A DNA stretch of 64,000 bases from Candidatus Kaiserbacteria bacterium (GTDB lineage: Bacteria > Patescibacteriota > Minisyncoccia > Phycocordibacterales > UBA2100): assembly GCA_016432285.1 (NCBI GenBank), contig CP066682.1, positions 188,273 through 252,272 on the forward strand, in the 5' to 3' direction. Positions 10,283 through 50,771 of the stretch are shown piece by piece. Made by a program: the position numbers and the translations under genes. The notes below the pieces were generated by a model. It was not told where the DNA came from and did not search any database. It saw nothing but the letters and a program-made list of their open reading frames with translations. Numbering within the stretch: the stretch's first letter is position 1; the number at the start of each line of letters is the position of its first letter.

Positions 10283-10564
10283 ATGAACCGGCTCGTGCGT
10301 GTGGGAAGGCAAGCAGGGAGAGTGGTACGCTCGCTTTCTCTCGTCGTAGCCGGGCTCTTCGTCGTTGCATTCGGGGTCGGCGGCAGAAATGCGGAATCCG
10401 ACGGACAAAATCAGGGTGTGCTCGCCAACATCAAGGACGAATTTACCGCGTACGCCGACGCACCCTATTCGCAGGCATCCTACTACTCCCAGGCGGACTA
10501 CGGCTGGTGGGGCGGTGGCGACGGCGGTGGCGACAGCGGCGACGCTGGCGGTGGGGACGCCTGA
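10283..10564 (+). CDS. module copy 1, small TM peptide (93 aa): basic N-terminus, TM helix, AYADAPY motif, Tyr-rich, GWWGG, Gly/Asp-rich acidic tail
   Basis: Internal ATG at 10283 in ORF 10088..10564; paralogous to 17141..17392 and 49292..49570. Confidence 0.55.
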   Translation: MNRLVRVGRQAGRVVRSLSLVVAGLFVVAFGVGGRNAESDGQNQGVLANIKDEFTAYADAPYSQASYYSQADYGWWGGGDGGGDSGDAGGGDA

Positions 10565-10571
10565 TACACCT

Positions 10572-11741
10572 ATGCAACCGAGCATCAAGATCATCCTCTC
10601 GGCCGTTTTGATTCTCGGCGCCCTCTCTTTTGCCGCCTTCTACTACTTCGCGATCGCGCCATTGAGTCAGCCGTCGGACGAGGGGCGACCGCGCGCCGAG
10701 AGTCTGACGGAGGCCATGCAAAAGCAGCTCGCGGGCGACCGGACGGGAGCCTATCAAAGCGCGCAGCGGCAGATCGCGGAAGGCGGCACCGAAGAAGATA
10801 CGGTGCTTGCGAAAATCACCGCGGCCAATTCGCTTTTCCAGATTGCGACTACGACCGAGGGCAGAATTGCCGCGATGCGGATACTAGCAAACGCGTATTC
10901 GGAAGGACAGAGCCCGCAGAGCAAAGCACTTGTCCTCAATGCGCTCGTGTGGACGCTGATTTTTAATGCCAATACCGAGCCTGTTACGCTCGCCGCGTTT
11001 GGTTTCAATGAGTTCCAGCCGTTTGCGGTCGAAGGTGCCAACGGAAAGTCGTTTCAGAACCTCCTGAAGCAATCGATCAGTCTCGCGCCGACACGCCGGG
11101 CGTACTACATGCGTGCAGTCGTCGCGTCGCGAGAGCTCGAGCGCAATTTCGCACCGGACTCCGCAAAGCTCCTGTCCGCCGCCTCTTCCGATTCGGTGCG
11201 CGAAATTGCGCAGAACATTCTCAAATTTATCGAGCAGGGAGATGCGCTCGCGCGGGCAGCGCCGCTCGACTCGGGGATAGAGGAACTCGACGACATCACG
11301 GAAGCGCAAAATCAAATCTACCGAGGGCTCGCGCTCTCCGCGGTCGCACTTGTCGACTCCTCGCAGCTTTCAAGCGCCCTCGGTGCTTTCCAAGCGGTCT
11401 TGGATACGGCCAGAAGCGGGGAGCCCACCGTGGCCGTGAATGTGATGGCCGCATACGCGCACCTGTATGCCGGTCGGATCGCGGCTGCAGTGGGTGGATC
11501 GGCGAATACGGCAGTTGCTCGCTCGCACCTTGCCGACTTCGCGGCATCCGCAGAGGCATCGCCGAAGGATTACGTCAAGATTTACGAAATGTTCCAGTGG
11601 CTCCGAGGCGGCGCTTCGATTCCCGCATCCGAGCAGGCGGAGAGCAGGCAGTATCGCCTCTACCAAACGTACTCATCGCTCGCGGCGCTCTCTCCCGATT
11701 TCAAAAATTTCCTCGCTTCAGTCGGTTGGCAGTTCGAGTAG
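10572..11741 (+). CDS. module copy 1, ~390-aa N-terminally anchored protein (paralog of 17408..18595 and 49578..50771)
   Basis: ATG 8 nt after the peptide stop; N-terminal TM; shared early motif LQ.L..G.Y.AA and C-terminal F(K)NFL.S.GW.(F/L)E. Confidence 0.6.
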   Translation: MQPSIKIILSAVLILGALSFAAFYYFAIAPLSQPSDEGRPRAESLTEAMQKQLAGDRTGAYQSAQRQIAEGGTEEDTVLAKITAANSLFQIATTTEGRIAAMRILANAYSEGQSPQSKALVLNALVWTLIFNANTEPVTLAAFGFNEFQPFAVEGANGKSFQNLLKQSISLAPTRRAYYMRAVVASRELERNFAPDSAKLLSAASSDSVREIAQNILKFIEQGDALARAAPLDSGIEELDDITEAQNQIYRGLALSAVALVDSSQLSSALGAFQAVLDTARSGEPTVAVNVMAAYAHLYAGRIAAAVGGSANTAVARSHLADFAASAEASPKDYVKIYEMFQWLRGGASIPASEQAESRQYRLYQTYSSLAALSPDFKNFLASVGWQFE

Positions 11742-11941
11742 CCTCTTCATAAAAAGAGAGGGAGTCGGCGCGGTGTGTTTTGTGCAGCGCCGACCCCCCT
11801 TATGGTGCGCGCCGCAGGGCGCGCAGTGGTGTAGGAGCTTGCGCTCCGTAAATCCAGCGTACATTTCGCGGAATGAAACGTCAATGACGAATCACTGACG
11901 CCCGTTCCGGCGGACAGTTTCCCGTCCGCCGGTCCGGGCAG

Positions 11942-12142
11942 CTACCTCGCGGCAGGTGCCTTCTTGATGCGCTCCAGCACTGCGCGCTGGAACACCGCTT
12001 CCGCGCTCGCGTCGTCTTCCGAGGACGCGGTCGCTTCAGCAGAAGTACCCCTGCCCGACACCACGGCAATGGCCGTAATGACGTTGGCGACGGCGATGAC
12101 CGCCACCAACGTGATGAGCAGAGCCATTCCAAGTACCCGCAT
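11942..12142 (-). CDS. small membrane protein (66 aa)
   Basis: Strong SD: GGAGG 4 nt upstream of ATG 12142; hydrophobic segment; GC hairpin downstream at 11907-11932. Confidence 0.4.
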   Translation of the reverse strand: MRVLGMALLITLVAVIAVANVITAIAVVSGRGTSAEATASSEDDASAEAVFQRAVLERIKKAPAAR

Positions 12143-12240
12143 TGCACCTCCATACGGGTTTACGGCCTATCGAAGCCACCACAGCCTCGATTCAGCCACA
12201 CCGACCCTAACGCCCTCCCGCCTCCCAGTCAACTTTTTTC

Positions 12241-12270
12241 TTGACTTTGAGTGCAAAATCAATGCATAAT
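12241..12270 (+). promoter_or_regulatory. promoter TTGACT-18nt-TGcATAAT for the small secreted protein gene
   Basis: -35 at 12241-12246; extended -10 at 12263-12270. Confidence 0.4.
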
Positions 12271-12322
12271 ATGCCCTCACGGCATGAGAGACCTCATGAC
12301 GAAACGTTCAAGGAGAGGAGAA

Positions 12323-12589
12323 ATGAAAAAACTGATCTTTACGGCCGCGACGGCACTGCTCGGCTTGTTCAGCTTGGCCGGGTCAAACTCTGCCTCGGCG
12401 CAGTGGCCCACAAGCTGCCTCGAAACCAAGACCAAGGGGGACTGCCCCAAGTGCCTGCAGTCTCGCAATGAGGCCGGCTCGTCGGGGGGCTTCAATCACT
12501 GCGCGGCGAACTGGCGCGGTCCCCAGGCCGGAATTACGACGACCGGGGGGCAAGCTCCACGCATGAGGGGTAGAGGCCGTAAGAAGTAA
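12323..12589 (+). CDS. small secreted basic Cys-containing protein (88 aa)
   Basis: aggagaggag SD upstream of ATG 12323; signal MKKLIFTAATALLGLFSLAGSNSASA; 4 Cys; Arg/Lys-rich C-terminus. Confidence 0.5.
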   Translation: MKKLIFTAATALLGLFSLAGSNSASAQWPTSCLETKTKGDCPKCLQSRNEAGSSGGFNHCAANWRGPQAGITTTGGQAPRMRGRGRKK

Positions 12590-12611
12590 GCGACCCCACT
12601 CATCAAAGCGA

Positions 12612-12640
12612 GGCCCGGCGGTCAATGCCGGGCCTTTTCT
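12612..12640. terminator. bidirectional rho-independent terminator (GGCCCGGCggtcaatGCCGGGCCtttt)
   Basis: Perfect 8-bp GC stem plus T-run between convergent genes. Confidence 0.55.
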
Positions 12641-13845
12641 TAGTCATTAGCTGGCAGTGATCCGCTCTTTTCCGTATACCTCTCGAGCGCAGCGATACAG
12701 ACGTGTGGCTCGGAGACGCGCCCGCACTCCGCAGAGAGCGAGTCCACGCGTGTCTCGGATTCCATATTTTGAAACGCTGCATTAAAACACTGTTGCTCTC
12801 TCTCGCTTTCTCCCACGGCACGACAGTACTCAAGCGCTTCCGTGTAGTTTCTGTTATCCACGTACTTGAGTACGACACCGACGCTGCACGCATCCCTTTG
12901 CGAAACATTCCCAAAGTTTCCGCACTGACCCGGGTCGCTCGAGGCACTTTGATTGAGCTGCTCGACACTTGAATAGCCGTACCCCGTATAGCAATCTCGC
13001 TGGTCGCCCCCCGTGAACGCATTGCACGCCTCAACGATGAGCGCCGCCCGCTCGCTTGTATCACGTCTTGTTCGCGCCAGCAGATCACGCTGAAAACCGG
13101 CAAGCTCGAAGAAGCATGCGTGTCGATATTGCGCGTCAACGGAGTCGCACGGGTAAGCAGGATCGTCTGTTGCGATCGTCGCGGATGCGGAGCGAAAAGC
13201 GAGCGAGTTTTCTTCGCCCACCGCTTCCATAAAGACCCCGAGGTAACACCGCTCCGCCTCGTCTCCATCGGCGATTGATTCGCAACTTTTGAGTGCTTCA
13301 TCGAAATCCTGCGTGGCGATGTAGAGTAAGTGTCCGATGCCGTGGCAGAGCTGCGTCTTAGCCGTACAGTACTTTGCGCCGATCGCGCCTATCGTCGCAG
13401 CATCGGCGTGCGCGATATCCTCGTCGTACGCATCGGCGAGTTCTGCGACGGCTGCCGCAGCGATAGCGCCGTGCTTACAGCCATTGCGACACAGGCCTGT
13501 GCATGCAGCGAGCGTCTCCTCAAGCCCGTCTCCTCTCTCTATGGACAGCTGACCGATTGCGTGCGCCGTTACGTGGCAGCTCGATACGACCGATGGGGGA
13601 GACGATTCGTTCGTAATGTACCGCATAAGCTTCGGCGTGGAGAATTGTTGCATGAGTTGATTCACGGTTTCTTGCACGCAAGAAAAATCCGCGCGATAGC
13701 CATGGGAGGCGGCAGGGTTCTCCGAGAAACAGCGCGCAAGCTCCTCGGGCGTCATCATTTTCGGTGATTGCATGTACGCGAAAATGAAAACGACGATTGC
13801 GATCACGCCGATGACGAGAATCTTTTGCCCGCTCCAACGGTTCAT
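12640..13845 (-). CDS. membrane-anchored Cys-rich repeat protein (~26 Cys)
   Basis: N-terminal TM, then repeated C...C(Y/F) motifs; 4-nt start/stop overlap with the upstream gene. Confidence 0.55.
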   Translation of the reverse strand: MNRWSGQKILVIGVIAIVVFIFAYMQSPKMMTPEELARCFSENPAASHGYRADFSCVQETVNQLMQQFSTPKLMRYITNESSPPSVVSSCHVTAHAIGQLSIERGDGLEETLAACTGLCRNGCKHGAIAAAAVAELADAYDEDIAHADAATIGAIGAKYCTAKTQLCHGIGHLLYIATQDFDEALKSCESIADGDEAERCYLGVFMEAVGEENSLAFRSASATIATDDPAYPCDSVDAQYRHACFFELAGFQRDLLARTRRDTSERAALIVEACNAFTGGDQRDCYTGYGYSSVEQLNQSASSDPGQCGNFGNVSQRDACSVGVVLKYVDNRNYTEALEYCRAVGESEREQQCFNAAFQNMESETRVDSLSAECGRVSEPHVCIAALERYTEKSGSLPAND

Positions 13846-15551
13846 GCCTTCTTTTCGTCCTTCTCAACGCAATAGATTTCGTTGGCGAAGGTTGGTACGA
13901 AGAATCGGCTGGTCTCCGCGTTGTACGCGATCTTGTTGGTTATCCGTTCTGTAAGGGTGATAGAAGCCTGTTCCTTCCCGGTGCGTGCGTCGATTTCCGT
14001 CAGCCGACCGGTGTTCGATCCAATGAAGACGCTGTCGCCGATAATCTTCGGGCTCGCGAAAATGCGGGCGCCGCTGCTCCAGCGCCATACCTCCTGGAAG
14101 CTCGAAAGGTCAACGCAGTAGAGATTCTTATCGAGCGACCCGATAATCGCCGTGTTCTCATAGAGCGCGGGAGTCGCGTAGAAGCCGTACTCCGCCTGGA
14201 ATCGGCCGGCCTCTGTGCCGGTGCGGCGATCAACGAAGTAAAGAGTTCCAGCGGTGCTGCCGAAGATCACACGGTCGTGATTCCTGTCGTATGCAAAAGA
14301 CTCCTTGATGTCGTTACTGCTGAAACCAACGTCAAGTTCCGCGTCCGATGGTTCGGCCGGCGAAAACTTCCACTTCAGCGCCCCCGTCTTGGCATCGAGG
14401 AGGTACGCGGCACCGTCGTTTGATCCGACGATAACTTCGCGGGTGTCTTTTAGGTAAAGCGGCGAAGAGTGCGTATAGCAGGGCATCTCCCGGTATTCCC
14501 ATATTTTTTTTCCGCTGTGCGCATCGAGCGCCACGACCCCTCCCCGCTTTCTCCAGAGGCCGAACTCAAGGCCCACGAAGACAAGATTCAAATCGACAGC
14601 GACGGCGGGGGAGGAGCCGATCCAATCTGCTTCAAGAAATACCCACTTTCGCTTGCCGGACGTCCGGTCGAGGGCGTAGAAGTTGCCGTCGTATCCACCG
14701 AAAAAGACGCTCTCGCCAAGGAGTGCGGGGGATGAAAAGATCCCCTTTCCCTTCATGTGCAGCAGAATGCGGTACGACCAAGCCACTTGACCCGTGTCCT
14801 GCCGGATCGCCCACATGGTCCCGTCGTCAGAGCCAACGTATACATGCGTGTCGTCAATCGCTGGTTCGGATTTTGGCACCACGTAAAAAAAGCTCGGGTT
14901 CTTGGCGGCGAATTTCCAGCGAACCATGAAGGGCCTTGAATGCACGGGCTCCTTGTGGGTCAAATTGCTGACGCCGAGAGTTTCACTAAAGTCATCGAGC
15001 GTAAATACGGAGAAAAGTTCGATGTTCTTTTTCCGCAGGTATTCGTAGTGCTCAAGATCTCGGAACCGTATCAGCGTCCACACGGCCTGCACCCGGTGTC
15101 CGAGCGCCTCCAGCACTTCCACCTGTCGCTCGATGCTCTTGCCGCTGTTTATCAGATCATCGACCAGAATGATCGGAGCGCCCGGAGCGATTTCGCCTTC
15201 AATGGCGCGCATCAATCCATCCTTTTTTCGCGACTTACGAATAAAAAATCCGGAAGTCTTCTTTTTTGATACCTCTCCCGCGTGGACGGTGAGCGCAGTA
15301 ACGAGTGTGATAGCGGCTGTCTCTATTCCTCCTATTTGGAAGGGGAAACGTTCGCGGAATGTATCCCAAAAAATCTCGGCAATATCCTCGAGCGCATCGC
15401 TTCGCAAGAGAATACGTCGCAGGTCAAAGAGCCAGCCGCTCTCCTTTAATTTTTTCCTACTCGAGACGATGTTCTCATGCTCGGCCCGGACATACGCGCT
15501 GTTCTCAATGAGTTCTTTTAGGTGCGCTTTATGTTCTTCGATTCCATCCAT
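13842..15551 (-). CDS. fusion protein: N-terminal type-I phosphoribosyltransferase (OPRTase-like) domain plus C-terminal PQQ-like beta-propeller repeats
   Basis: PRPP-binding motif PIILVDDLINSGKSI; about 7 repeats of G(T/N)hY(A/C)hD..(T/S)G...W; minus-strand TGCTATAGT promoter at 15575-15583. Confidence 0.65.
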   Translation of the reverse strand: MDGIEEHKAHLKELIENSAYVRAEHENIVSSRKKLKESGWLFDLRRILLRSDALEDIAEIFWDTFRERFPFQIGGIETAAITLVTALTVHAGEVSKKKTSGFFIRKSRKKDGLMRAIEGEIAPGAPIILVDDLINSGKSIERQVEVLEALGHRVQAVWTLIRFRDLEHYEYLRKKNIELFSVFTLDDFSETLGVSNLTHKEPVHSRPFMVRWKFAAKNPSFFYVVPKSEPAIDDTHVYVGSDDGTMWAIRQDTGQVAWSYRILLHMKGKGIFSSPALLGESVFFGGYDGNFYALDRTSGKRKWVFLEADWIGSSPAVAVDLNLVFVGLEFGLWRKRGGVVALDAHSGKKIWEYREMPCYTHSSPLYLKDTREVIVGSNDGAAYLLDAKTGALKWKFSPAEPSDAELDVGFSSNDIKESFAYDRNHDRVIFGSTAGTLYFVDRRTGTEAGRFQAEYGFYATPALYENTAIIGSLDKNLYCVDLSSFQEVWRWSSGARIFASPKIIGDSVFIGSNTGRLTEIDARTGKEQASITLTERITNKIAYNAETSRFFVPTFANEIYCVEKDEKKA

Positions 15552-15611
15552 ACGAGCGATTTCGAGGCCGGTATACTATAGCACCGCGCCCACAGTATAA
15601 TAATTTATCGT

Positions 15612-16904
15612 ATGAGCCCCGGTGCTTCATTCTTTGACTCTCGCGCCGAGCAGAGCTTTCTGCGTTTTTATCGTCGTATCTTTTCGATTGCTGAGATAGA
15701 AGGAAGTAGAGTGCTGCAGTGGGTGTTTGGCGCGACGATCCTCTCATACTTCATCGCATTTGATTCTCGGCTTTACTCCGACGCGCTCACCGTAGATGCC
15801 TTTTTATCGGGTACGCACCGATGCTGGCCATACTTTCAATCGTGCGGTGAGTGGCTCTTTCTGCGTGCGCTCCCAGCCGGCTACTCCCAAATGCTGCTTT
15901 ACATGGCGCTCTTCGGTCTTCTGGCGCTTGCCGTGTATCTCATGTACAAGAAAGAATGGGTACTGGCGCATATCGCGCTCATCCCGAGTTTCCTCTGGCA
16001 CTTCCTCGGTTCGTTCGTCCTTAGCGGAGAGCTTGCGGGCAATTATGACTACTACCTTTTTCTTCTTGCGTTCGTGTTGCTTTTTGTGCCATACAAGGAG
16101 TTCTTTCTCAAACTTCTCTTGGTGCTCTTCTATTTCCTGGCATCGTTATCGAAAATTCACGAATCGTGGATTCTCGGCACGTACTTCTCCTCGTTGAAGA
16201 CAGGATTGCCACTCTTTCCAGACTGGTCGATACCGATTTGGACCAACCTCGTGATCTTTATGGAAATGGTCGCGGCGTGGTTCCTGCTCTCGGGCCGGAG
16301 GCTACTACAGCGTGCCGTATTCATTTTTTTCGTCGCTTTTCATCTCTACTCCGGCATTTTTGTGGGATTCCGGTATCCGGCCACCGTGCTGCCGACACTC
16401 CTCATCCTCTTCGGTCCTCTCTACGCCTATACGCCGCCGCCGCTTACGCGTCGCGCACTCGCCGGGTGGATACTGGTCTCTCTCATGTTTATGGCACAAC
16501 TTTCGCCACTCCTCGTGCGGGGCGATGAGAAACTCACACTCGAAGCAAATAAGTTCGGTCTCTACATGTTTGAATCCAACCACCAGTGCGTCTCAAGCGC
16601 GACGGTATTTCTGAAGGATGGTACGCAATACGAAGTTCGGGCCGAGAGCGTTTCCGCCCGGTCGCGGTGCGATCCGTACTATTACTGGTTTTCGCTCCGC
16701 GCGCCGTGCGAGAGGGATCAAGCAATTGGGCGAATTGTGTGGACGTTTGACCACTCGATCAACGGCGGTCCGTTTCTCCGGATCGTCGACGAGCAGGACG
16801 CGTGCTCGCTTTCGTATGATCCCTTTCGACACAATGCGTGGATCAAAACGGAAACCGACGCTCCAGAGGTTATCGGATGGCCCGTAGAAAATGTCTATGA
16901 TTGA
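15612..16904 (+). CDS. polytopic membrane protein with C-terminal Cys-containing soluble domain, unknown function
   Basis: ~8 hydrophobic helices then a soluble ~140 aa; TATAAT at 15596-15601, 10 nt upstream of the ATG. Confidence 0.55.
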   Translation: MSPGASFFDSRAEQSFLRFYRRIFSIAEIEGSRVLQWVFGATILSYFIAFDSRLYSDALTVDAFLSGTHRCWPYFQSCGEWLFLRALPAGYSQMLLYMALFGLLALAVYLMYKKEWVLAHIALIPSFLWHFLGSFVLSGELAGNYDYYLFLLAFVLLFVPYKEFFLKLLLVLFYFLASLSKIHESWILGTYFSSLKTGLPLFPDWSIPIWTNLVIFMEMVAAWFLLSGRRLLQRAVFIFFVAFHLYSGIFVGFRYPATVLPTLLILFGPLYAYTPPPLTRRALAGWILVSLMFMAQLSPLLVRGDEKLTLEANKFGLYMFESNHQCVSSATVFLKDGTQYEVRAESVSARSRCDPYYYWFSLRAPCERDQAIGRIVWTFDHSINGGPFLRIVDEQDACSLSYDPFRHNAWIKTETDAPEVIGWPVENVYD

Positions 16905-17109
16905 AGCAACGTCGAGCATCCCGATTCTGGCGCTAACCGGGCTCGAAGGAAACGCGCCGACCGCACTGTCCCCTCTACAGGTCTTTCTTGCTTCCCAATT
17001 CGATACGATCGCCGCATTCTGGTGGACGATCAGCGTCATCGTCCTCCTCACCGTCGTTATTCGCGCGTTTTCTGCGATACATAAGCAGTTTCCCCAGGGT
17101 GATCGTTGA
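16897..17109 (+). CDS. possible small single-TM protein overlapping the stop of the upstream gene
   Basis: ATGATTGA overlap with the upstream stop; one hydrophobic helix; weak support. Confidence 0.25.
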   Translation: MIEATSSIPILALTGLEGNAPTALSPLQVFLASQFDTIAAFWWTISVIVLLTVVIRAFSAIHKQFPQGDR

Positions 17110-17140: not shown

Positions 17141-17392
17141 ATGGAAGTCTCCCTCCGGCGGGTCCTGAAGATCCTCGTTTACGCTCTCATGCTTGCCGCG
17201 GGGGTCATTCTCGCGTTCGTGTCATATCGGGATAAGGAAAACGCGACAGGGGGTTTAGTATCGACTGCCTACGCGGATGCGCCGTATGCGCAGAGCGCGT
17301 ATTACGGACAGGGGGGATATGGGTGGTGGGGCGGCGACGGCGGCGACGGAGACGATGACGGCGATGATGATAGTGGCGATGGCGATAGCTGA
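17141..17392 (+). CDS. module copy 2, small TM peptide (83 aa) with AYADAPY, GWWGG and poly-Gly/Asp tail
   Basis: Internal ATG 17141; motifs STAYADAPYAQSAYYGQGGYGWWGGDGGDGDDDGDDDSGDGDS. Confidence 0.55.
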   Translation: MEVSLRRVLKILVYALMLAAGVILAFVSYRDKENATGGLVSTAYADAPYAQSAYYGQGGYGWWGGDGGDGDDDGDDDSGDGDS

Positions 17393-17407: not shown

Positions 17408-18595
17408 ATGCCAGAAGCAGGAGAAGTACAGCAGCCTCAAACGCACTACGGTCGATCGATCTTGATCGGCAGTACCGTACTTCTCGTTGTCGGATTCGGA
17501 GTCGCGTACTTTCTCATCGTCATGCAGGTCCCCTCGCGCGGGGGAACTACCGGCGGAGTAGGCAGATTGCAGCCACAAACGCTCCAGCAGCTCAAAAAGG
17601 CTGGCAACTACGAGGCCGCGCTTGCGGAATACGAACGGATCATGAGCGATCCCCTTAAGGACGCGAATGAGAAAGGGTTTGCGGTCATCAGTGGAACCAA
17701 CCTCAAGTTCACGCTGACGGCGGACATAAAAGACATGATCGAGGACGTGCAGCGATTAAAGGAGGTCGTGCTTGATCCGTCGGTGGAGACTCGCGTGCGT
17801 GTCGAGGCGCTCAATACGCTTTCGGCATCCGTCTGCCGATCCGGACGAGATCCGATCATTTTCGATGAGCTCTATAAGGATGAGCCATTCAAGCGATACC
17901 TCGTGCCGGGCGATCCCGATCTCTCCGCGCGTCTCATGGCGGAGTGGTCATATGACATGTCGCCCACGTCCTTTGCCGCGATTCGTATTGCACGTTGGTA
18001 CTCCGATCAAGTATTCAGAAACGGCACGCTCTCGGGAGAGAAGGTGAGTGAATACACGGCAGAAGCAGAAAAGTATATGGAGATCGCGGGGCAGCTCGTG
18101 GAAAAGGAGCTCAAGCGCTCCACGGATCGCACGCGGAGCATTACTTATATCGCGTATCGTATGTGGACGGCGATCACCGTTGGCCGACTTGCGACGGTGA
18201 AGGACGAGTACCGGGCGCAGTACAAAACCGAATTCGAAGACTTACTGAACTTCCTCACGGCCAATAAGAACGTGGGCGTTTTCGATTACCTGTACCTGGT
18301 GCGCGAGCACTACGCGCGCTTCATGATCCGCATAGACGGCAACACCGCCGGAGCAAAGGCCCAGCTCGACATCCTTGCGCGCGAGCTCCAAGAGTTTCCA
18401 ATACCGGACTCCAGTACCTACGTGAGACTTATGCGCAACGAGTCTACGTACAATCCCGGCGGATACCTCTGGAACAACTACAAAACCCTCATGTCGATCT
18501 CGCCGAGTTTCAAAGCGACGGTAGAGGAGCTCCTCATTCCCGACCCTGAGACTATCGGCAGTTCTGCGGCACCCCTGGAAACAGCGGAGTTTTAA
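17408..18595 (+). CDS. module copy 2, ~395-aa N-terminally anchored protein
   Basis: ATG 15 nt after the peptide stop; N-terminal TM; LQQLKKAGNYEAALAEY motif shared with paralogs. Confidence 0.6.
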   Translation: MPEAGEVQQPQTHYGRSILIGSTVLLVVGFGVAYFLIVMQVPSRGGTTGGVGRLQPQTLQQLKKAGNYEAALAEYERIMSDPLKDANEKGFAVISGTNLKFTLTADIKDMIEDVQRLKEVVLDPSVETRVRVEALNTLSASVCRSGRDPIIFDELYKDEPFKRYLVPGDPDLSARLMAEWSYDMSPTSFAAIRIARWYSDQVFRNGTLSGEKVSEYTAEAEKYMEIAGQLVEKELKRSTDRTRSITYIAYRMWTAITVGRLATVKDEYRAQYKTEFEDLLNFLTANKNVGVFDYLYLVREHYARFMIRIDGNTAGAKAQLDILARELQEFPIPDSSTYVRLMRNESTYNPGGYLWNNYKTLMSISPSFKATVEELLIPDPETIGSSAAPLETAEF

Positions 18596-18599
18596 TCTT

Positions 18600-19382
18600 G
18601 TGCGAGTCGCACTCCTGTCATTACGAGGGGGCCGGTTGGCAGCCGTTGCTGTAGTGCTTGGCGTATTGGCATTCGTTGGAAGCAGCGACATGACAGTACT
18701 TCTCCAAAACGCTCAGTTACTTTTCTTTCCGTCTGCCGCCTCAGCGTATAACTTTGGCAATCAGCACTTCGACGCGCGCAGTGGATACGAATACGACATC
18801 GACCGGGCGGAGTCGCTCTACCAAGAAGCGCTCCGCATCGACCCACAGTTTCCCTACGCGCGACACCAGCTCGCCCGCATCTCATTTTTGAGGGGCGATT
18901 TCAAGAGCGCGCTTGTGCTGATCAACGAAGAGCTCTTCACGAATCCCGATCCCTCTCCGTCCTCGTACTACATCCGGGGCCTCATTGAGGGGTACGCAGG
19001 ACGCTACGACGACGCAGCCAAAAGCTACGAGCGCTATCTGGAGCGTGATCCGCGCAATTGGGCGGCGATCAATGATTACGCGTGGGTGCTCCTGCGGGCA
19101 GGGAGGTCAGAGGATGCCGCGATCGCCACCGCCGAGGGCCTCGCATATTTTCCCGAGAATCCATGGCTTTTGAACAGCAACGCGACCGCGCTTTTTGAGC
19201 TTGGCCTCACGAAGGAGGCGAGCGCCGTCATACAAAAGGCGGGGGAGAGCGCAGCTTCCATCACCGAACCAATGTGGCTCACGGCGTATCCCGGCAACGA
19301 TCCTCGGATCGCGCGACAGGGAATCGAGACGCTCCAGCGTGCGATTGCGTCCAATAAGCTCCGCTTTGCCGATCCCGAATAA
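18600..19382 (+). CDS. TPR-repeat protein with N-terminal TM/signal
   Basis: GTG start 4 nt after the upstream stop; repeats of Y..G.......A...Y...L..DP. Confidence 0.6.
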   Translation: MRVALLSLRGGRLAAVAVVLGVLAFVGSSDMTVLLQNAQLLFFPSAASAYNFGNQHFDARSGYEYDIDRAESLYQEALRIDPQFPYARHQLARISFLRGDFKSALVLINEELFTNPDPSPSSYYIRGLIEGYAGRYDDAAKSYERYLERDPRNWAAINDYAWVLLRAGRSEDAAIATAEGLAYFPENPWLLNSNATALFELGLTKEASAVIQKAGESAASITEPMWLTAYPGNDPRIARQGIETLQRAIASNKLRFADPE

Positions 19383-19416: not shown

Positions 19417-19911
19417 TTGCGCTCCATGAAGCGCGAGCGTGTGTATACTGAAGTTATGAGTTCGCGCTTCGCGACCTACGCGTTTCTCGTTTTTCTCGCG
19501 CTCACACTGCTCGTTTCTTTCGCCTCGTTTGCATACGCGCAGACCGACGAAGAGCTCCGCTCCACTGTCCGTGCGGCGATTCTCTCGGATCCACGCTCGG
19601 CAAGTATGAGCGAAGCGGAAATCGACGCGATGGTTGAAGCTCTTTCGGGTCAGGCGGCGGAGCAAGGCGTAACGGCCTCCGACATAACGTGGCAGCCGCA
19701 GCAGAGCGAGTTCCCTGCGACTTCCAAAGGGGAGCCGACCTCCTGCGCCTACCCCACACTCCTCTGCTCGCTCAATGAGGCGTTCGGCCTATCCGGATCG
19801 TCGATTCTGTTACCCACAGCTCTCGGGGTGGTCTCGGCGCTCCTCCTTGCGGTTGTTGCTATGATGATTGAACACCACCGCAAAGAGCGGTTCTCCGCAC
19901 AACGCGCATGA
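19417..19911 (+). CDS. secreted/tail-anchored small protein, paralog A (signal peptide, DEELRSTVRAAILSDPRSASMSEAEIDAMVEAL core, C-terminal TM ...MMIEHHRK)
   Basis: ~50% identical to 20906..21358; start uncertain (19417, 19426 or 19456). Confidence 0.5.
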   Translation: MRSMKRERVYTEVMSSRFATYAFLVFLALTLLVSFASFAYAQTDEELRSTVRAAILSDPRSASMSEAEIDAMVEALSGQAAEQGVTASDITWQPQQSEFPATSKGEPTSCAYPTLLCSLNEAFGLSGSSILLPTALGVVSALLLAVVAMMIEHHRKERFSAQRA

Positions 19912-20894
19912 TCCCTACCAGTACGTCCAGGTCAGTCCGAGCTCGCCTGATTGTTGCCGCGGCTCTCACGATCATCGCTCTCCTTGTATACGCGGCGACG
20001 GTTTCGAGCGACCGTGCGGGTTTCGCATCTTCGGAAGTGCAATTCGCCGACGCCTCGCAAGGCGGCGCGCTCATCGTGCCAGCTTCGTGCCCCTCGAATC
20101 CACACTACGCGGGCGAGTGCAGCGGCGGAGGTGGCGGAGGTGGCAGCAACAATCCACCCGCAGCGCCCTCAAGCAATGCCTGCATCATCGCGCTCTCTCC
20201 CTCCACCATCGTGAGCGGCCAGAGCGCGTTCATGGGCTGGTCATCCACGTACGCGATTTTCGGCATTCCCTTCGTCGTGTCGGGCACGATCACGCCGACT
20301 CCTGGGGCGGTTGCCGATGCTGGCGTAACAACCGTCAACCCGACACAGACGACCACCTACAGCGGCACTTTTACCCCAAGCGGTAGCGTGCAGGGCATAC
20401 CGCAGAGCTGGCTCACGCCCGTCAATTGTTCGGCGGCGCTCACGGTCCTCACGAGCGCACCGGGTGCGGGAGCGTGCGCGCAGGTCAACTTCTGCAACGG
20501 CAGCGCGCTCTACCAGCAGCAAACCAACTGCACTGACGTGCTCGTGCAGCAATGCCCCTACGGCTGCTCCAACGGTGCATGCCAGGGAGCCGCAGCACCC
20601 ACCGCGTTCATCAGAGCGGTGCCCTCGCTCGTGCGCGCTGGCGAGCAGAGCACGATCTCGTGGAGCTCCTCCAACGCGGCTTCGTGCAACGTCACGAGCG
20701 TACCGGCCGTCGGAGGGACCCCGTGGTCGGGTCTCTCGGGGAGTCAGGATACGCCAATCGGCTACCAGACCACCTTTACGCTCTCGTGCCTCGGCCTCAA
20801 CGGCTCCACGATCAACCGCTCTGCGGTCGTCGACATCCTCCCGGTCTTCTGCGAAGTCGGCGCACCGGATTGCGATATTCAGCCCGGACAATAA
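19908..20894 (+). CDS. membrane-anchored secreted Cys-rich protein (328 aa)
   Basis: ATGA overlap with the upstream gene; N-terminal TM; poly-Gly; ~18 Cys; Thr/Ser-rich. Confidence 0.5.
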   Translation: MIPTSTSRSVRARLIVAAALTIIALLVYAATVSSDRAGFASSEVQFADASQGGALIVPASCPSNPHYAGECSGGGGGGGSNNPPAAPSSNACIIALSPSTIVSGQSAFMGWSSTYAIFGIPFVVSGTITPTPGAVADAGVTTVNPTQTTTYSGTFTPSGSVQGIPQSWLTPVNCSAALTVLTSAPGAGACAQVNFCNGSALYQQQTNCTDVLVQQCPYGCSNGACQGAAAPTAFIRAVPSLVRAGEQSTISWSSSNAASCNVTSVPAVGGTPWSGLSGSQDTPIGYQTTFTLSCLGLNGSTINRSAVVDILPVFCEVGAPDCDIQPGQ

Positions 20895-20905: not shown

Positions 20906-21358
20906 ATGCACGCATATCTGAAACTTCGCACCGCATTCATCGTTACGCTTGCCCTCATCACCCTGAGCGCGCTTCCGCTCTTTGCCCATGCGCAGAGCGA
21001 CGAGGAGCTGCGCTCCACGATTCGCGCCGCAATCGTCGCAGATCCCCGCTCGGCCAGCATGAGTGAGGCGGAAATCGACGTGATGGTGGAGGCACTCGCC
21101 ACACAGGCGAAGGCCACCGGCGTCACGGCACGCGACGTCGAGAGTGCCGCGCGGGCGAGTCAGAATACACAGCGCCGCTCACCGTACGCGAGCGAATGCA
21201 CGAGCTTCATCTGCAAGGTCAACGAGGCGTTCGGCATCACCGGCAACGCAAGTGTGATCGCGGTTGCCATGGGCGTGACCGCCGCCGTGCTCCTCTTTGT
21301 GATCGGCATGCTCATCGAACACCATCGCCGCAAGCTCACAGGCTCCAATCCGCTCTAG
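20906..21358 (+). CDS. paralog A-prime of 19417..19911
   Basis: Shared motifs AQSDEELRSTIRAAIVADPRSASMSEAEIDVMVEAL, NEAFGITG and C-terminal TM MLIEHHRRK. Confidence 0.5.
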   Translation: MHAYLKLRTAFIVTLALITLSALPLFAHAQSDEELRSTIRAAIVADPRSASMSEAEIDVMVEALATQAKATGVTARDVESAARASQNTQRRSPYASECTSFICKVNEAFGITGNASVIAVAMGVTAAVLLFVIGMLIEHHRRKLTGSNPL

Positions 21359-21375
21359 CGCTCTCGTGTGTGGGG

Positions 21376-21404
21376 TTGCATTTCACGGGGCGCGCCTGTA
21401 TAGT
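21376..21404 (+). promoter_or_regulatory. promoter TTGCAT-17nt-TGTATAGT for the rplC operon
   Basis: -35 at 21376-21381; extended -10 at 21397-21404. Confidence 0.45.
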
Positions 21405-21410
21405 GCCCGC

Positions 21411-21487
21411 ACATTCTCTTTGAGAATGTCCCATGTCCCCATACGGGACCAATGGTTCGGGAAAACGCCCGCCATTGTGGGCGTTTT
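21411..21487 (+). promoter_or_regulatory. structured 5' leader of the rplC operon: three hairpins, the last (AACGCCCgccattgtGGGCGTTttgt) terminator-like, 12 nt before the ATG
   Basis: Hairpins at 21411-21429, 21435-21449 and 21463-21487 read directly; candidate attenuator. Confidence 0.35.
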
Positions 21488-21498
21488 GTCATAACACT

Positions 21499-22107
21499 AT
21501 GAAATTCATGCTCGGCACCAAGGGTCGTATGACGCAGATTTTCGATGAAAGCGGCGTCGTGAAGGCCGCGACGATCGTCGTCGCGGGGCCTCTCACCGTG
21601 ACACAGGTGAAAACCAAGGATAAGGATGGTTACGCCGCCGCGCAGGTGGGCTTTGGATCCATGAAGGAAAAGAACGTGTCGCAGGCAAAAAAGGGCCACC
21701 TCAAGGACCTCGCGTTTTCTCGGCATCTTCGAGAGTTTCAGCCGGAGGGCGAGGTGAAGCGCGGGGATTCCATCGACGTGTCGATCTTCGCGCCGGGCGA
21801 CACGGTCGCCGTTTCGGCGATCTCCAAGGGCAAAGGATTCCAGGGCGTCGTAAAGCGACACGGCTTTTCGGGCGGCCCCCGCAGCCACGGCCAGAAAAAT
21901 AAGGAGCGCGCACCCGGCTCCATCGGTGGCGGCGGACGCGCGGGTGGCCGCGTAGTGAAGGGCATGCGGATGGCTGGTCGCATGGGAGGAGATCGGATCA
22001 CCGTCAAAAACCTGAAAGTCTTGCAGGTCGACCCTGCGTCGCACACGCTTCTCATTTCCGGCGCCATTCCCGGCTCACCCGGCACGCTCGTCGAGATTCG
22101 CGGCTAA
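21499..22107 (+). CDS. rplC: 50S ribosomal protein L3
   Basis: MTQIFDE...; gene order; internal ATG at 21499. Confidence 0.95.
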   Translation: MKFMLGTKGRMTQIFDESGVVKAATIVVAGPLTVTQVKTKDKDGYAAAQVGFGSMKEKNVSQAKKGHLKDLAFSRHLREFQPEGEVKRGDSIDVSIFAPGDTVAVSAISKGKGFQGVVKRHGFSGGPRSHGQKNKERAPGSIGGGGRAGGRVVKGMRMAGRMGGDRITVKNLKVLQVDPASHTLLISGAIPGSPGTLVEIRG

Positions 22108-22117
22108 TTTCAATACT

Positions 22118-22786
22118 ATGGAAGCACCAATCTACAATGCGGCAGGAAAAAAGAGCGGTTCGCTCGAGCTTCCGGAGCAGATCTTCAGCATCGAGTGGAA
22201 CGACTCGCTCATGCACCAGGTGGTAACCGCGATGCAAGGCAACGCGCGCCCCACGGTCGCGCACACGAAGACTCGCGGCGACGTGCGCGGCGGCGGTCGC
22301 AAGCCATGGCAGCAGAAGGGTACCGGCCGCGCGCGGCACGGATCGATCCGAAGTCCGATCTGGCGGGGCGGCGGTATCACGCACGGTCCGCGTGCCGACA
22401 AAAACTACTCGCGCACGATCCCGAAAAAGATGCGCGCCCGCGCTCTCTTCATGGCGCTCTCCCGCAAGATGAAAGACGGCGAGATCCTGTTCGTCGATTC
22501 CTTCGGCATCGACTCTCCCAAGACGGCGGCAGCCAAAAAGGCGCTCGTCTCCTTCTCGAAAATCTCCGGGTTTGAAAAGCTCGCCACCAAAAAGAAAAAT
22601 GCGGCGATCGTCGCCTTCGCGATGCCGAACGACGCTTCCGAAAAGTCTTTCCGCAACATCGGCAATGTGAAGACGCTCGACGTGCGCAGCTTGAATCCGG
22701 TCGCGGTGCTCGGGAGCACGTTCGTCATCATCGAAAACCCCGAGGCGTCCGTCGCCACCCTCTTGAGCCGCTCGGCCAAAAAATAG
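22118..22786 (+). CDS. rplD: 50S ribosomal protein L4
   Basis: Sequence and position. Confidence 0.95.
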   Translation: MEAPIYNAAGKKSGSLELPEQIFSIEWNDSLMHQVVTAMQGNARPTVAHTKTRGDVRGGGRKPWQQKGTGRARHGSIRSPIWRGGGITHGPRADKNYSRTIPKKMRARALFMALSRKMKDGEILFVDSFGIDSPKTAAAKKALVSFSKISGFEKLATKKKNAAIVAFAMPNDASEKSFRNIGNVKTLDVRSLNPVAVLGSTFVIIENPEASVATLLSRSAKK

Positions 22787-22787
22787 T

Positions 22788-23174: not shown

Positions 23175-23178
23175 TTCT

Positions 23179-48197: not shown

Positions 48198-48220
48198 AAA
48201 AATCCTGCTATACTCACGGC

Positions 48221-48871
48221 ATGAGTCGAATTCTCGCGTACGTGTTTGCGGCCATCGTGGTGCTCGGGGGCGCTTACCTCCTGCTTACCAAGAGTCCTGC
48301 GCAAAACGCCGATAGTATCACCGCGCAGTCGATCGTAGAGCAAACGGCCGCGTATACGATCGACGCGAAATATCCGCAGGTCGGCAACCCCGCCATCGAC
48401 GCCGACATCGAAGCCACTGTGCGCGCGGCCGTCGAGGAGTTTAAGACGTATCCCCAGAATCCGCCGGATTCGGCCGTCCCGCAAAACGAGTTCATCGGCC
48501 TCTACGACGAGGTGTACACGGGAGCCGATGTCGTAAGCGTGGAGCTGATCTTTTCCGAGTACACGGGCGGCGCGCATCCGAATGCGGCCATCGTTGGATT
48601 AAATTACAACCCCGCCACTGGCGCGAAGGTAACACTCGACGAGGCGCTTTCCATGATCGGCCTTTCGCTGTCGCAGGTGGCCGCGAAAGCGCAAGCACAG
48701 TTTGAGACGGATCTTGCCGACGCGTACTTTCCTGAGGGGGCAGAGCCGACACTCGAAAATTACGGCACGTTTGTGGTGAGTGCCGACGCCGTCACCTTTA
48801 TCTTCCAAAACTACCAGGTCGCTCCGTACGCGGCCGGTCCGCAAGAGGTCTCCTTCTCGCGCGTGCGTTAG
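48221..48871 (+). CDS. membrane-anchored DUF4163/DUF3298-like (RsiV-type) domain protein
   Basis: N-terminal TM; TGCTATACT 6 nt upstream of ATG 48221. Confidence 0.5.
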   Translation: MSRILAYVFAAIVVLGGAYLLLTKSPAQNADSITAQSIVEQTAAYTIDAKYPQVGNPAIDADIEATVRAAVEEFKTYPQNPPDSAVPQNEFIGLYDEVYTGADVVSVELIFSEYTGGAHPNAAIVGLNYNPATGAKVTLDEALSMIGLSLSQVAAKAQAQFETDLADAYFPEGAEPTLENYGTFVVSADAVTFIFQNYQVAPYAAGPQEVSFSRVR

Positions 48872-49170
48872 CGCTTCAGAGAGAGTCGGTGCAGGATCCG
48901 GCACGGCTCCACGATCCGCGGGTCGACGATATTGTAAAAGGCGCTGGTGCCGCTTCGGCGTACCGTTACGAGCCCCGCATGCCGCAGGAGCGCGAGGTGC
49001 TGGGAAACGTTCGTCTTTGAAATGCCGAGCTCCTCGATGAGATCGTGCACGCCCAGCTCCTGCTCGCGGAGGAGATTCAGAATCTCCAACCGCTTCGGGT
49101 TGGCGAGCAGTTTGTAGGTCTCCGAGTTTTTCTCGTACGCGGAACGGGGGAGCGGGCGCTTGATGCTCAT
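48868..49170 (-). CDS. ArsR/SmtB-family transcriptional regulator (second copy)
   Basis: HTH GVHDLIEELGISKTNVSQHLALLRHAGLV; minus-strand TGCATACT 10 nt upstream of the ATG. Confidence 0.7.
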   Translation of the reverse strand: MSIKRPLPRSAYEKNSETYKLLANPKRLEILNLLREQELGVHDLIEELGISKTNVSQHLALLRHAGLVTVRRSGTSAFYNIVDPRIVEPCRILHRLSLKR

Positions 49171-49291
49171 TGTTTCCAAAGTATGCAATCAGTGCGCCCG
49201 GCGCGCAAGCGCGCCGCTTGTCCCCACGCGGCTGCGGGTCGCATCCGCGCCTCCTGTACAATGAGTTGCATAGTTTCGCAATTATCTAACT

Positions 49292-49570
49292 ATGATCTAC
49301 GTTGAGACACCGCTCCGACGCCTCCGCAGGCTCTGGCGAATTGGCGCGGGCGCGCTCCTTCTTGTGGGCGGCTTCGTATTGCTGCTGCTCGCACCGAGCG
49401 CGCGGCAAGAATCGCACACGGTGGTTTTCGACGACTCATCCATCGCATACGCCGATGCGCCATACGTGCCGCCGCCACCGGATCCGCTTCCGCCGCCGCA
49501 GGATCCGGGATGGGGGTGGTCGCAGAGTTCGGGCGACGGTGCAGGGGATGGCGGCGGCGACTGCCCGTAA
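49292..49570 (+). CDS. module copy 3, small TM peptide (92 aa): AYADAPY, Pro-rich, GWGW, Gly/Asp tail
   Basis: Motif SIAYADAPYVPPPPDPLPPPQDPGWGWSQSSGDGAGDGGGDCP; TGTACAAT -10 at 49255-49262. Confidence 0.55.
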   Translation: MIYVETPLRRLRRLWRIGAGALLLVGGFVLLLLAPSARQESHTVVFDDSSIAYADAPYVPPPPDPLPPPQDPGWGWSQSSGDGAGDGGGDCP

Positions 49571-49577
49571 CTAACGT

Positions 49578-50771
49578 ATGGATGAATTCGAGCAGGCAGG
49601 AAAAAACAGGATCGGCGTCGTGGCCATCGCCCTCGGGATCGTTGGTTTTGCGCTCGTCGCGCTTTTTTTCTACGAGTTTGCTCTCCTGAAGCGCGACGTC
49701 GGTGATCTTGCGGGTCCGAAGCCGGTGGGCGCGATCGAGGCCGTCCAACTACAAAAGCTCTACAACCTCGCGGAGGGTGGCGACTACGCGGCCGCCAGTC
49801 GGGAGGCCGAAGAAGGGATCGCGCTGTGGAGCGAGGACACGGTGGCTGGACAGCGCGCGCGCTCCGTCAAAGTGACAGCCGATTTTTGGAGCGGGGAAAA
49901 GGAGAAGCGTCTCGATGCCGTGCGCGCGACCAAGGTGCAGCTCCAGGAGAGCCCGGGAACGCCCTACAATCAGGCGCTCTTCGTCAACCGCCTCCTCAGT
50001 TACATGACGACGGCCATGGAGCCGGAGATCATCGACGAGATTTTCAGCGGCGAGTTTGCATCCATGCGTGTGCCGGGCGACGACGTCGCCTCGCTCGGTA
50101 AGCTTGCGGAATACTCGCTCTCGAAGGACTATACGAATCTCGCCAATTTCAAAGTCGGCATCGTCCATGCGGCGGAGCTTTTCAAACACTTCGACGGCGT
50201 GAAGCAGCTCTCGTCGGCGGAACTTGCCGAGTACGTGAGCGCGATCCGCAAGGTGATTTCTGAAACCTCGTCGCACCTTGAGGAGGAAGAGCGGCGCATG
50301 TACGGTCGGCCGTACTGGGAGCTCCAGGCGCCCGCCTTCTACTACTTCCAAGGGTTCCTGCGCGCCTCGATCGCGCTCGCGTATCCAGAGTACCTCCCGA
50401 GCGCGAAAGAAGCTCTCCGCCAGGTGGAGCAGTACTACCGCGACCGTCGCACCGAAAGCGGCGGCCCCAACAAAATGATCGAGGCACGCGTCGTGTACAC
50501 CAACTTCTCGCTCGCCACCTTCATGTATGCGATCGAAGGCGAGCAGAGTAAGCCGCAGGTGCAGGCGGCACTCCAGACCATCATCGATTTGGTGGAAGCC
50601 GATCCCGAGGCGCACAAGGGCGCATTTCTCACATTCATGCGTCAAACGCTTGAGGATGGCCCCGATCAACCGAAAGGTCGCTGGTACAGCTACGGCCGGT
50701 TCGTGCAGATGGCCGACCTCTATCCGCCTTTCAAGCAATTCCTGAATTCGTACGGGTGGGATCTCGAGTAA
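49578..50771 (+). CDS. module copy 3, ~397-aa N-terminally anchored protein
   Basis: ATG 7 nt after the peptide stop; C-terminal FKQFLNSYGWDLE matches the copy-1 C-terminus FKNFLASVGWQFE. Confidence 0.6.
   Translation: MDEFEQAGKNRIGVVAIALGIVGFALVALFFYEFALLKRDVGDLAGPKPVGAIEAVQLQKLYNLAEGGDYAAASREAEEGIALWSEDTVAGQRARSVKVTADFWSGEKEKRLDAVRATKVQLQESPGTPYNQALFVNRLLSYMTTAMEPEIIDEIFSGEFASMRVPGDDVASLGKLAEYSLSKDYTNLANFKVGIVHAAELFKHFDGVKQLSSAELAEYVSAIRKVISETSSHLEEEERRMYGRPYWELQAPAFYYFQGFLRASIALAYPEYLPSAKEALRQVEQYYRDRRTESGGPNKMIEARVVYTNFSLATFMYAIEGEQSKPQVQAALQTIIDLVEADPEAHKGAFLTFMRQTLEDGPDQPKGRWYSYGRFVQMADLYPPFKQFLNSYGWDLE

Follow-up and report, generated by a model that had tools for sequence, protein, structure and literature searches.

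A 64,000-nucleotide stretch of the Candidatus Kaiserbacteria contig CP066682.1 (positions 188,273 to 252,272 of the forward strand), hereafter the window, carries three dispersed copies of a gene pair in which a small open reading frame (ORF) for an acidic peptide with one transmembrane (TM) helix is followed by the gene for a larger anchored protein. The three pairs are real genes that diverged anciently and are under protein-level selection, and the pairing of peptide and large gene is obligate. We consider it reasonably probable that the small ORF encodes a precursor-type peptide and that the large protein, which has a tetratricopeptide repeat (TPR)-like fold, is its dedicated anchored partner, azole-forming enzymes being added in most relatives. 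On sequence evidence we rate the system as related to the thiazole/oxazole-modified microcins and linear azol(in)e-containing peptides (TOMM/LAP), set apart by a leader that contains a TM helix and by its obligate TPR-like partner, and the window as a triplicated form of it that lacks YcaO.

Three gene pairs and their families

All six ORFs lie on the forward strand where a preliminary description of the window had placed them (see the table below), and the gaps between peptide and large gene measure 7, 15 and 7 nt in copies 1, 2 and 3, within the 7 to 15 nt it had given. When all window ORFs of at least 50 amino acids (aa) were scanned with hidden Markov models (HMMs), exactly three large and three small members were found, each small one together with a large one. 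In a six-frame scan of the window, the heptad AYADAPY, which had been described as strictly conserved, turned up in each of the three peptides and at no other place, and its back-translated pattern was matched three times compared to 0.00 expected from 100 shuffles. Since the three copies of the heptad differ synonymously at 6 of 7 positions, it has been kept at the protein level and is not a recent DNA repeat. Its distance from the helix, earlier put at about 15 residues, proved to be 15-25 residues in the window. In peptide 1 the N-terminus is basic and leads into a TM helix, after which come AYADAPY, a segment rich in Tyr (YSQASYYSQADYGWWGG) and a Gly/Asp tail. In peptide 3 the residues after the heptad are rich in Pro, and GWGW precedes a Gly/Asp tail that ends in DCP. 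GWWGG is found in peptides 1 and 2, and these motifs and tails are as had been reported. The GC content at third codon positions (GC3) of peptide 3 is 0.72, within the range of the flanking genes.

The three large proteins of the window share 20-26% identity. Full-length alignments at 22-24% identity link large 3 to large 1 (E=3e-12) and also to large 2 (E=1e-7), and large 1 and large 2, which gave no significant direct match to each other, are joined through large 3 and the family profile, bearing out the claim that they are paralogous. The earlier proposal of old duplications held under selection agrees with this low identity and with the synonymous codon variation of the heptad. The ATG of large 1 is at 10572, and the longest-ORF call begins upstream of it at a TTG. 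Searched against Pfam and NCBIfam, none of the six proteins reached a threshold, in line with the previous statement that neither component belongs to a characterised family.

A peptide profile made from six sequences recovers 26 database proteins, and the same architecture was found in unrelated metagenomes. The N-terminus is basic, often K-R-x-L-K-I-x-x-Y-like, and one TM helix follows; a linker of varying length (11-34 residues) then leads to a near-invariant junction, (V/I)-A-(H/Y)-A-D-(A/V/I/T)-P. Past this junction the tails cannot be aligned between members. They are Tyr/Gln/Ser-rich (PY.Q.SYY.Q..YG) in window copies 1 and 2, Pro-rich in window copy 3, and Cys/Gly-rich elsewhere (for example, SCGTCGTCGSCGG...), and all of them close with runs of Gly, Asp and Glu, the last residues often being DCP, GCP or DCS; their net charge is -2 to -12 and Lys and Arg are practically lacking. 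The peptides beside the closest relatives of large 3 read AHADAPI (at the related locus L001) and AHADVPY (L004a), whereas peptide 3 has AYADAPY like its in-genome paralogs, and the codons of the motif vary among the window copies; from one genome, this hints that a common factor encoded in the genome recognises the junction. A match of the 328-aa window protein to the peptide HMM, through the letters FADA, was set aside as chance, since its orthologs lack the motif.

The large proteins belong to a sizeable family without a name. A profile search found 619 representatives of 50%-identity clusters at E<=1e-3, with 319 at E<=1e-10 and 110 at E<=1e-30, so that the family comprises at least 619 such clusters; nearly all representatives are 360-400 aa long, and an N-terminal TM anchor is present in 147 of 154 members. 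No Pfam family, the TPR models included, matches more than 1 of 60 diverse members. The AF2 model of large 3, built on an alignment of 8 sequences (pLDDT 84.9, pTM 0.81), consists of an N-terminal TM helix, a disordered linker and 16 more helices, arranged in the stacked helix-turn-helix repeats forming a superhelix that characterise the TPR superfamily. Foldseek returned mainly TPR and other helical-repeat proteins (LGN, TTC5, LapB, Pex5 and NprR), although with weak scores (E>=4e-3, TM 0.3-0.4), and the family profile matches consensus-TPR designs over the first repeat only (E=6e-9). The G(D/N)Y..A motif that had been picked out near the start of the large proteins is indeed there, but it is this first, TPR-consensus-like repeat, and structure prediction of the large protein alone, which had been proposed as a check, gives a TPR-like solenoid and so no fold orphan. 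As modelled, the large protein is a divergent membrane-anchored TPR-like scaffold without a specific close relative. TPR-like scaffolds typically bind extended peptides.

The pairing extends well beyond the window. Seventeen motif-bearing peptides lie upstream of a large-family gene and two further loci are compatible with this arrangement, with no counter-example, which answers the question raised previously of whether the two genes are always co-encoded. Starting from the large protein, we found a small ORF directly upstream in L001, L004 (two pairs), L013, L014, L016 (where the gene caller had overlooked it) and L017; starting from the peptide, L009-L012 each have a large-family member downstream, and the metagenomic loci L018-L020 show the same arrangement. 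The two compatible cases are the P0140 locus, with a 120-aa ORF upstream of the large gene, and L015, which is cut by the contig end and has a small ORF that ends in a Cys-rich tail. The large proteins of the paired set are as low as 16-24% identical to those of the window. The cluster family has so far been seen in candidate phyla radiation (CPR) bacteria (metagenome-assembled genomes labelled Kaiserbacteria and Nomurabacteria) and on unassigned metagenome contigs. What had been an anonymous pair of hypothetical proteins can now be treated as a defined family, with A(H/Y)AD(A/V)P after a TM helix as the diagnostic motif of the peptide.

Azole-forming enzymes in relatives and a proposed mechanism

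Genes for a YcaO and a 'nitroreductase' flank the pair in L001, L010, L011, L012, L013 (two sets), L018 and L020, and an eighth locus, that of P0140, has a nitroreductase fragment. The cluster YcaOs are nearest to the SagD maturase TIGR03604 (E 1e-47 to 1e-60; 162-202 bits, under the 219-bit cutoff), and the reductases are SagB dehydrogenases, TIGR03605 (99-119 bits, above the cutoff of 78). A SagD-type YcaO together with SagB is the enzymatic core of TOMM/LAP clusters, which make peptides that are synthesized ribosomally and then modified post-translationally (RiPPs). The cores hold 2-8 Cys in YcaO-linked loci compared to 0-2 in unlinked ones (one-sided Mann-Whitney p=0.002, n=7 vs 6). The adjacency of SagD and SagB, together with these Cys-rich cores, thus indicates that the peptides of the linked relatives are TOMM/LAP-type RiPP precursors. 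A conserved leader with a hypervariable core, a feature of TOMM/LAP precursors, is likewise apparent from the alignment, from L019 and L020, and from P0169-P0179, whose peptides have near-identical leaders and differing cores. L019 (347-646) and L020 (2778-3053) come from one metagenome and encode near-identical 65-residue leaders (one substitution) with different Cys-rich cores; these peptides may be strain variants or paralogs. Around its one visible pair, L013 (143-1129, 2372-4653 and 9325-11170) has two flanking YcaO and SagB sets and a gene of the Asp/Arg beta-hydroxylase family (PF05118), and L001 encodes two paralogous CapK/LuxE-like adenylate-forming enzymes (450 and 403 aa; 13341-15997) with no counterpart in the window.

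Clusters of this general kind have been reported from CPR bacteria, with 110 antiSMASH LAP clusters in 93 CPR genomes (51 Parcubacteria), most of which have a nitroreductase beside YcaO, and one Microgenomates example comprising YcaO, a nitroreductase, a peptidase and an 84-aa precursor (Sharrar et al. 2020, PMC7298704). The module is therefore not wholly new, as the word 'undescribed' in the preliminary description had implied, but a full-text literature search found no description of the AHADAP peptide family, of its anchored TPR-like partner or of YcaO-less versions. The earlier guess of a processed or modified surface peptide, or of a partner of the adjacent protein, fits the SagD/SagB linkage in relatives, the window itself lacking the modifying enzymes. 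If the family is the same, the likely substrates of at least some CPR 'LAP' clusters that are so far known from antiSMASH only can now be named.

The charges around the helices suggest that peptide and large protein are both oriented N-in/C-out. The peptides have about three Lys and Arg in the N-flank compared to about 1.5 in the C-flank, and this basic N-flank, together with the acidic tail free of Lys and Arg, points to a tail outside the cell; in the large family 111 of 147 proteins have a higher net charge before the helix (N-flank) than after it (C-flank), with the reverse in 15. The other cluster proteins mostly carry signal peptides, anchors or conserved Cys pairs, indicating an envelope location.

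In the mechanism that we propose, the small ORF would encode a precursor-type peptide whose leader consists of the basic N-terminus and the TM signal anchor, oriented to leave the N-terminus inside and to put the tail outside, and would end at the A(H/Y)AD(A/V)P junction, the hypervariable acidic Gly-rich tail being the core. The large TPR-like protein would be the dedicated binding partner of the peptide on the outer face of the membrane, where it may keep hold of the peptide after export, or display it, so that the peptide is processed at the junction or retained on the surface, or so that the cell itself is protected. The pair would form the invariant core of the cluster family, to which most relatives have added a SagD-type YcaO cyclodehydratase and a SagB dehydrogenase, predicted to convert Cys and Ser of the Cys-rich cores to azol(in)es of the TOMM/LAP type. 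The Kaiserbacteria genome would have triplicated the pair, with copy 2 retaining the envelope genes and a gene for a phosphoribosyltransferase (PRTase)-propeller fusion, and copies 1 and 3 standing as satellites beside accessory genes. We infer the topology, the cleavage at the junction, the binding of the peptide by the TPR-like protein and the biological role. The design would be an unusual one for a RiPP, with a TM-containing leader and with no SagC/RRE partner (RRE, RiPP recognition element) or ATP-binding cassette (ABC) exporter seen.

Several observations weigh against this reading. Neither YcaO (tblastn with four cluster YcaOs) nor SagB (tblastn) was found in the 64-kb window, and neither is present in the visible parts of L004 and L009, so that the RiPP status of the window peptides is a matter of homology only. 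The window cores contain 0, 0 and 1 Cys and 3-4 Ser/Thr and thus are not the Cys/Ser/Thr-rich cores expected; those of the YcaO-less loci L004 (two pairs) and L009 are likewise Cys-poor. No SagC/E1-like or RRE partner was recognised in any locus with Pfam or NCBIfam, although the uncharacterised proteins of 352-457 aa could conceal one, and this leaves substrate recognition by YcaO unexplained. A leader with a TM helix is unusual for a RiPP, and an ATP-dependent modification in the cytoplasm must precede export. For the large protein, the count of Lys and Arg (58 vs 46) is by itself ambiguous on topology. Finally, the A-x-A of the junction lies too far past the helix for a classical signal-peptidase site. 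The window peptides are probably azole-free, because YcaO and SagB are absent from the window and the cores are Cys-poor; they would be exported unmodified or otherwise modified, unless the enzymes are encoded elsewhere on the chromosome. The YcaO-less versions retain the remaining machinery, and a conserved function without azoles is thereby directly testable.

The position of the junction can be compared with Sec signal peptides and with B. subtilis SdpC, a Sec-exported and further-processed peptide. Like these, the peptides start with a basic n-region, continue with a hydrophobic h-region and have an acidic part after A-(H/Y)-A; unlike them, they lack a c-region of 3-7 aa, the predicted cleavage point being separated from the helix by the whole 11-34-residue linker and marked by six consecutive conserved positions. 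Signal peptidase I needs far fewer conserved positions than six. The distance and the conservation together make a dedicated recognition or cleavage step at the junction more likely than signal peptidase.

Alternative readings and known systems

Compared to the TOMM/LAP systems SagBCD (streptolysin S), McbBCD (microcin B17) and phazolicin, and to the CPR LAP clusters of Sharrar et al. 2020 (PMC7298704), the family is alike in that the precursor gene of relatives adjoins a SagD-type YcaO and SagB (7 loci), with Gly/Cys/Ser-rich cores there, and in its conserved leader and hypervariable core. It differs in that the window has neither enzyme and Cys-poor cores, in the TM helix and invariant AHADAP junction of the leader, and in the lack of a SagC/E1-like partner; no recognisable ABC exporter or leader peptidase was found in any locus inspected. 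The anchored TPR-like protein, the envelope set and the PRTase-propeller are constant here and undescribed for LAP clusters. In a bolder reading, which we hold only tentatively and think unlikely, the pair, and not YcaO, would be the defining core of an unrecognised CPR envelope system with a mirror-image N-terminal sorting signal. If that were true, the basic cluster, the TM helix and AHADAP would direct short acidic low-complexity peptides to the surface, to be processed or displayed there by the anchored TPR-like protein, a second TPR protein, a 430-aa polytopic protein and the small membrane proteins, and azole formation would be tailoring of an optional kind. Where a genome lacks YcaO, a different, undescribed peptide chemistry would then come from the recurrent PP-loop ATPase-like enzymes and the PRTase-propeller, and the three co-diverged pairs of the window would amount to a set of surface peptides that matters to an episymbiotic lifestyle. 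By analogy only, the peptides recall PEP-CTERM/exosortase signals, in which a short conserved motif likewise goes with a TM helix and a basic cluster, and in both cases a polytopic membrane protein is encoded alongside; unlike them, the present peptides have the mirror-image N-terminal layout, with only 1-3 substrates per genome, and the 430-aa protein has no detectable similarity to exosortases. CPR bacteria (Patescibacteria) have tiny genomes with few recognised biosynthetic or surface systems, and a multi-copy cluster is likely to be important to their host-associated lifestyle.

A different role for the large protein, which we judge improbable but worth weighing, is that of a cytoplasmic leader-recognition subunit that delivers the core to YcaO in place of SagC or an RRE; where YcaO is missing from the genome, it would serve other enzymes, the PP-loop proteins for example. 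Such a role would account for the lack of an E1-like or RRE protein in any cluster, for the large gene being the only universal neighbour of the peptide and for the closest folds being peptide-binding TPRs, and the count of Lys and Arg leaves topology undecided. The net-charge bias for N-in/C-out (111 vs 15) argues against it, as do the retention of the pair where YcaO is absent, the mostly extracytoplasmic nature of the co-clustered proteins, and the approximately 100-130 extra N-terminal residues of the cluster YcaOs, which could themselves bind the leader.

The partner could also sequester a toxin. In this toxin/immunity or toxin/retention arrangement, the exported peptide, azole-modified in relatives, would be antimicrobial or host-directed, the cognate TPR protein would shield the producer by sequestering it, and paralogous pairs would co-diversify. 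The cores are hypervariable and the large proteins diverge fast, the paralogs being 20-26% identical within the genome compared to 38-59% for accessory genes between genomes. Characterised LAPs are antibiotics (PMC7298704). In addition, the peptide of copy 1 weakly matches PF25184, a YxzE-like putative bacteriocin (E=3.5e-4; 22 bits, cutoff 40), as does P0168, which is labelled PF25184 in precomputed data, and that family too is made up of small proteins with an N-terminal TM helix and a Gly-rich tail. However, only these 2 of 26 peptides match it (E<0.1), both under the 40-bit cutoff, YxzE itself is uncharacterised, the acidic Gly-rich tails free of Lys and Arg differ from most membrane-active bacteriocins, and no exporter or immunity ABC genes were seen in the loci inspected. 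We regard this explanation as quite unlikely.

Signalling of the RRNPP kind (Rap-Phr, PlcR-PapR, NprR-NprX and AimR-AimP), in which the TPR protein would be the receptor for a secreted pheromone obtained from the peptide by cleavage at the junction, appears very improbable. As in those systems, a TPR-type solenoid stands beside a small gene for an exported peptide (7-15 nt away in the window, and adjacent in nearly all related loci). An ArsR regulator lies beside copy 3 and beside the L001 pair. Unlike RRNPP receptors, the large protein is membrane-anchored and has no helix-turn-helix (HTH) or other DNA-binding domain, phosphatase or other output domain, and in structure it is best matched by generic TPR scaffolds; the peptide gene lies upstream, and its product is longer and acidic. 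The cluster has no oligopeptide importer, and linkage to SagD/SagB is foreign to RRNPP systems. One could also take the small ORFs for reading frames that arose by chance in the GC-rich DNA upstream of a genuine TPR gene, as the low-complexity tails, the many spurious ORFs in the window at 59% GC and the homolog overlooked by the gene caller in L016 might suggest. This is effectively refuted by cross-genome conservation, the architecture and motif recurring in 17 or more pairs whose proteins share about 20% identity, while within the window AYADAPY occurs three times compared to 0 expected, with synonymous variation, and the GC3 of peptide 3 resembles that of flanking genes.

Genes around the pairs

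The pairs are accompanied in the window by a conserved set of neighbours (table). Copy 2 lies within an orthologous cluster of about nine genes, from which only YcaO and SagB are missing (tblastn with cluster genes; cf. L011/L012), and the pairs, which do exist as described, are therefore not the free-standing two-gene module that had been supposed. The PRTase-propeller has orthologs in L001, L004, L009, L011 and L012 (38-47% identity), as well as in L013 and L018. The 430-aa protein is 42-59% identical to its orthologs in L011, L001, L004 and L009; it has no match in Pfam or the PDB, exosortases included, and its single-sequence AF2 model has a pLDDT of 42. The canonical TPR gene, noted earlier as following copy 2 and confirmed with Pfam, is found directly downstream of the large gene in 10 loci. 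The 401-aa protein encoded between copies 1 and 2 is an ortholog of the gene after the large gene in L001 (E=1e-20) and has weak similarity to the gene between YcaO and SagB in L012 (E=2e-4). The approximately 400-aa anchored neighbours (window 12640-13845 and L001 11196-12404) were considered as large-family paralogs, but no relationship could be detected.

Table. Gene pairs and conserved neighbouring genes in the window (positions are those of the 64-kb stretch)
Feature	Position	Strand	Remarks
Peptide 1	10283-10564	+	93 aa; HYS26_01110; Cys=0; peptide HMM E=2e-31
Large 1	10572-11741	+	389 aa; N-terminal TM anchor and TPR-like solenoid (predicted); family HMM E=6e-77; P0007
Peptide 2	17141-17392	+	83 aa; HYS26_01145; architecture as peptide 1; Cys=0; HMM E=1e-30
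Large 2	17408-18595	+	395 aa; anchored TPR-like family member (predicted); HMM E=4e-90
Peptide 3	49292-49570	+	92 aa; HYS26_01380; Cys=1; HMM E=7e-36
Large 3	49578-50771	+	397 aa; anchored, TPR-like (predicted); identical to HYS26_01385; protein used for structure model
Second PP-loop/Asn-synthase-like protein	5579-6451	+	290 aa; ortholog within L001 cluster, E=8e-70
Divergent PP-loop ATPase-like protein (SGGxDS)	8429-9529	-	366 aa; recurs at L001 and L004 (two copies), 47-55% identity
Partner of PP-loop-like protein	9526-10218	-	230 aa; always paired with the 366-aa PP-loop-like gene
N-terminally anchored protein	12640-13845	-	401 aa; between copies 1 and 2
PRTase domain (cytoplasmic) fused to PQQ-like beta-propeller	13842-15551	-	Pfam; in most related clusters
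Polytopic membrane protein, Cys-containing C-terminal domain	15612-16904	+	430 aa; highly conserved cluster member
Small membrane protein	16891-17109	+	72 aa; ortholog of 64-68-aa genes in L011, L004 and L001
N-terminally anchored canonical TPR protein	18600-19382	+	260 aa; Pfam TPR_19 E=1e-21
Protein with signal peptide and C-terminal TM helix	19417-19911	+	164 aa; cluster member
Anchored Cys-rich protein	19908-20894	+	328 aa; cluster member
ArsR-family regulator	48868-49188	-	divergent from pair 3; HTH_5 E=9e-17

The other two copies have neighbours of their own. The ArsR gene that had been placed beside copy 3 is there, and its ortholog in L001 has 76% identity and the same position; an SSF transporter near copy 1 also has an ortholog at L001. 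The neighbours of copies 1 and 3 (the PP-loop-like, 230-aa, SSF and ArsR genes) thus have their orthologs packed around the single L001 pair, which indicates that the three window pairs are one functional context dispersed by duplication. Genes for PP-loop-like proteins lie beside pairs at L001 (7307-9096 and 12401-13288) and at L004 (8405-10158 and 12893-14646), YcaO-less genomes included, and the constant partner protein of the PP-loop-like gene is 213-231 aa long across loci. Profile searches with the 366-aa and 230-aa families against PDB sequences and Pfam gave nothing usable, the PP-loop Pfam matches being sub-threshold. The PP-loop ATPase-like proteins could supply an alternative ATP-dependent peptide chemistry. 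Lasso peptides have an acceptor Asp or Glu at core positions 7-9; a lasso-peptide reading of the PP-loop/Asn-synthase-like genes was rejected, as the proteins are too short, the matches sub-threshold and no such acceptor is present. A metal-binding role suggested by ArsR was also rejected, since on inspection the regulator lacks the usual Cys/His metal-site motifs. Defence-system models gave no match, and promoter and terminator scans were at chance level.

Some further features were noted at these loci. In L009 a rhodanese gene (7316-7750) stands between peptide and large gene, with a DsbA/thioredoxin-like gene nearby (9826-10599), and the two hint at sulfur or disulfide chemistry at this YcaO-less locus. 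A small secreted protein is encoded beside the cluster at 12251-12589 (+) of the window, with counterparts at L011 1241-1504, L001 16091-16321 and L013 2021-2278; in all four genomes it carries a signal peptide and several Cys, its mature part is about 50-80 residues long and its tail is basic. BLAST shows no homology among the four, which may form a basic counterpart of the acidic peptides. The strongest terminator-like hairpin of the region (12610-12636; 11 pairs, 8 GC) lies between two genes that converge on it, one with its end at 12589 (+) and the other at 12640 (-), and may act both ways. Beyond ArsR, an anchored PdaC/DUF3298-domain protein is encoded at 48206-48868 (+), in a frame whose longest ORF starts at a TTG at 47885.

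Elsewhere in the window, a tmRNA gene (51921-52321, -; Rfam 102 bits) encodes the tag peptide ANKVAQGVLSPIQVKDLQFAYAIA, and a tRNA-Ile gene (58727-58799, +) has the anticodon TAT (UAU), which would read AUA directly and not via a lysidine-modified CAU tRNA. EF-Tu and a ribosomal-protein operon occupy approximately 2447-3685 and 21000-33600 (L2-like 23179-24021, L18-like 29039-29386), and, ORF length being a misleading guide at 59% GC, the longest-ORF heuristic chose many ORFs on the wrong strand in this ribosomal region.

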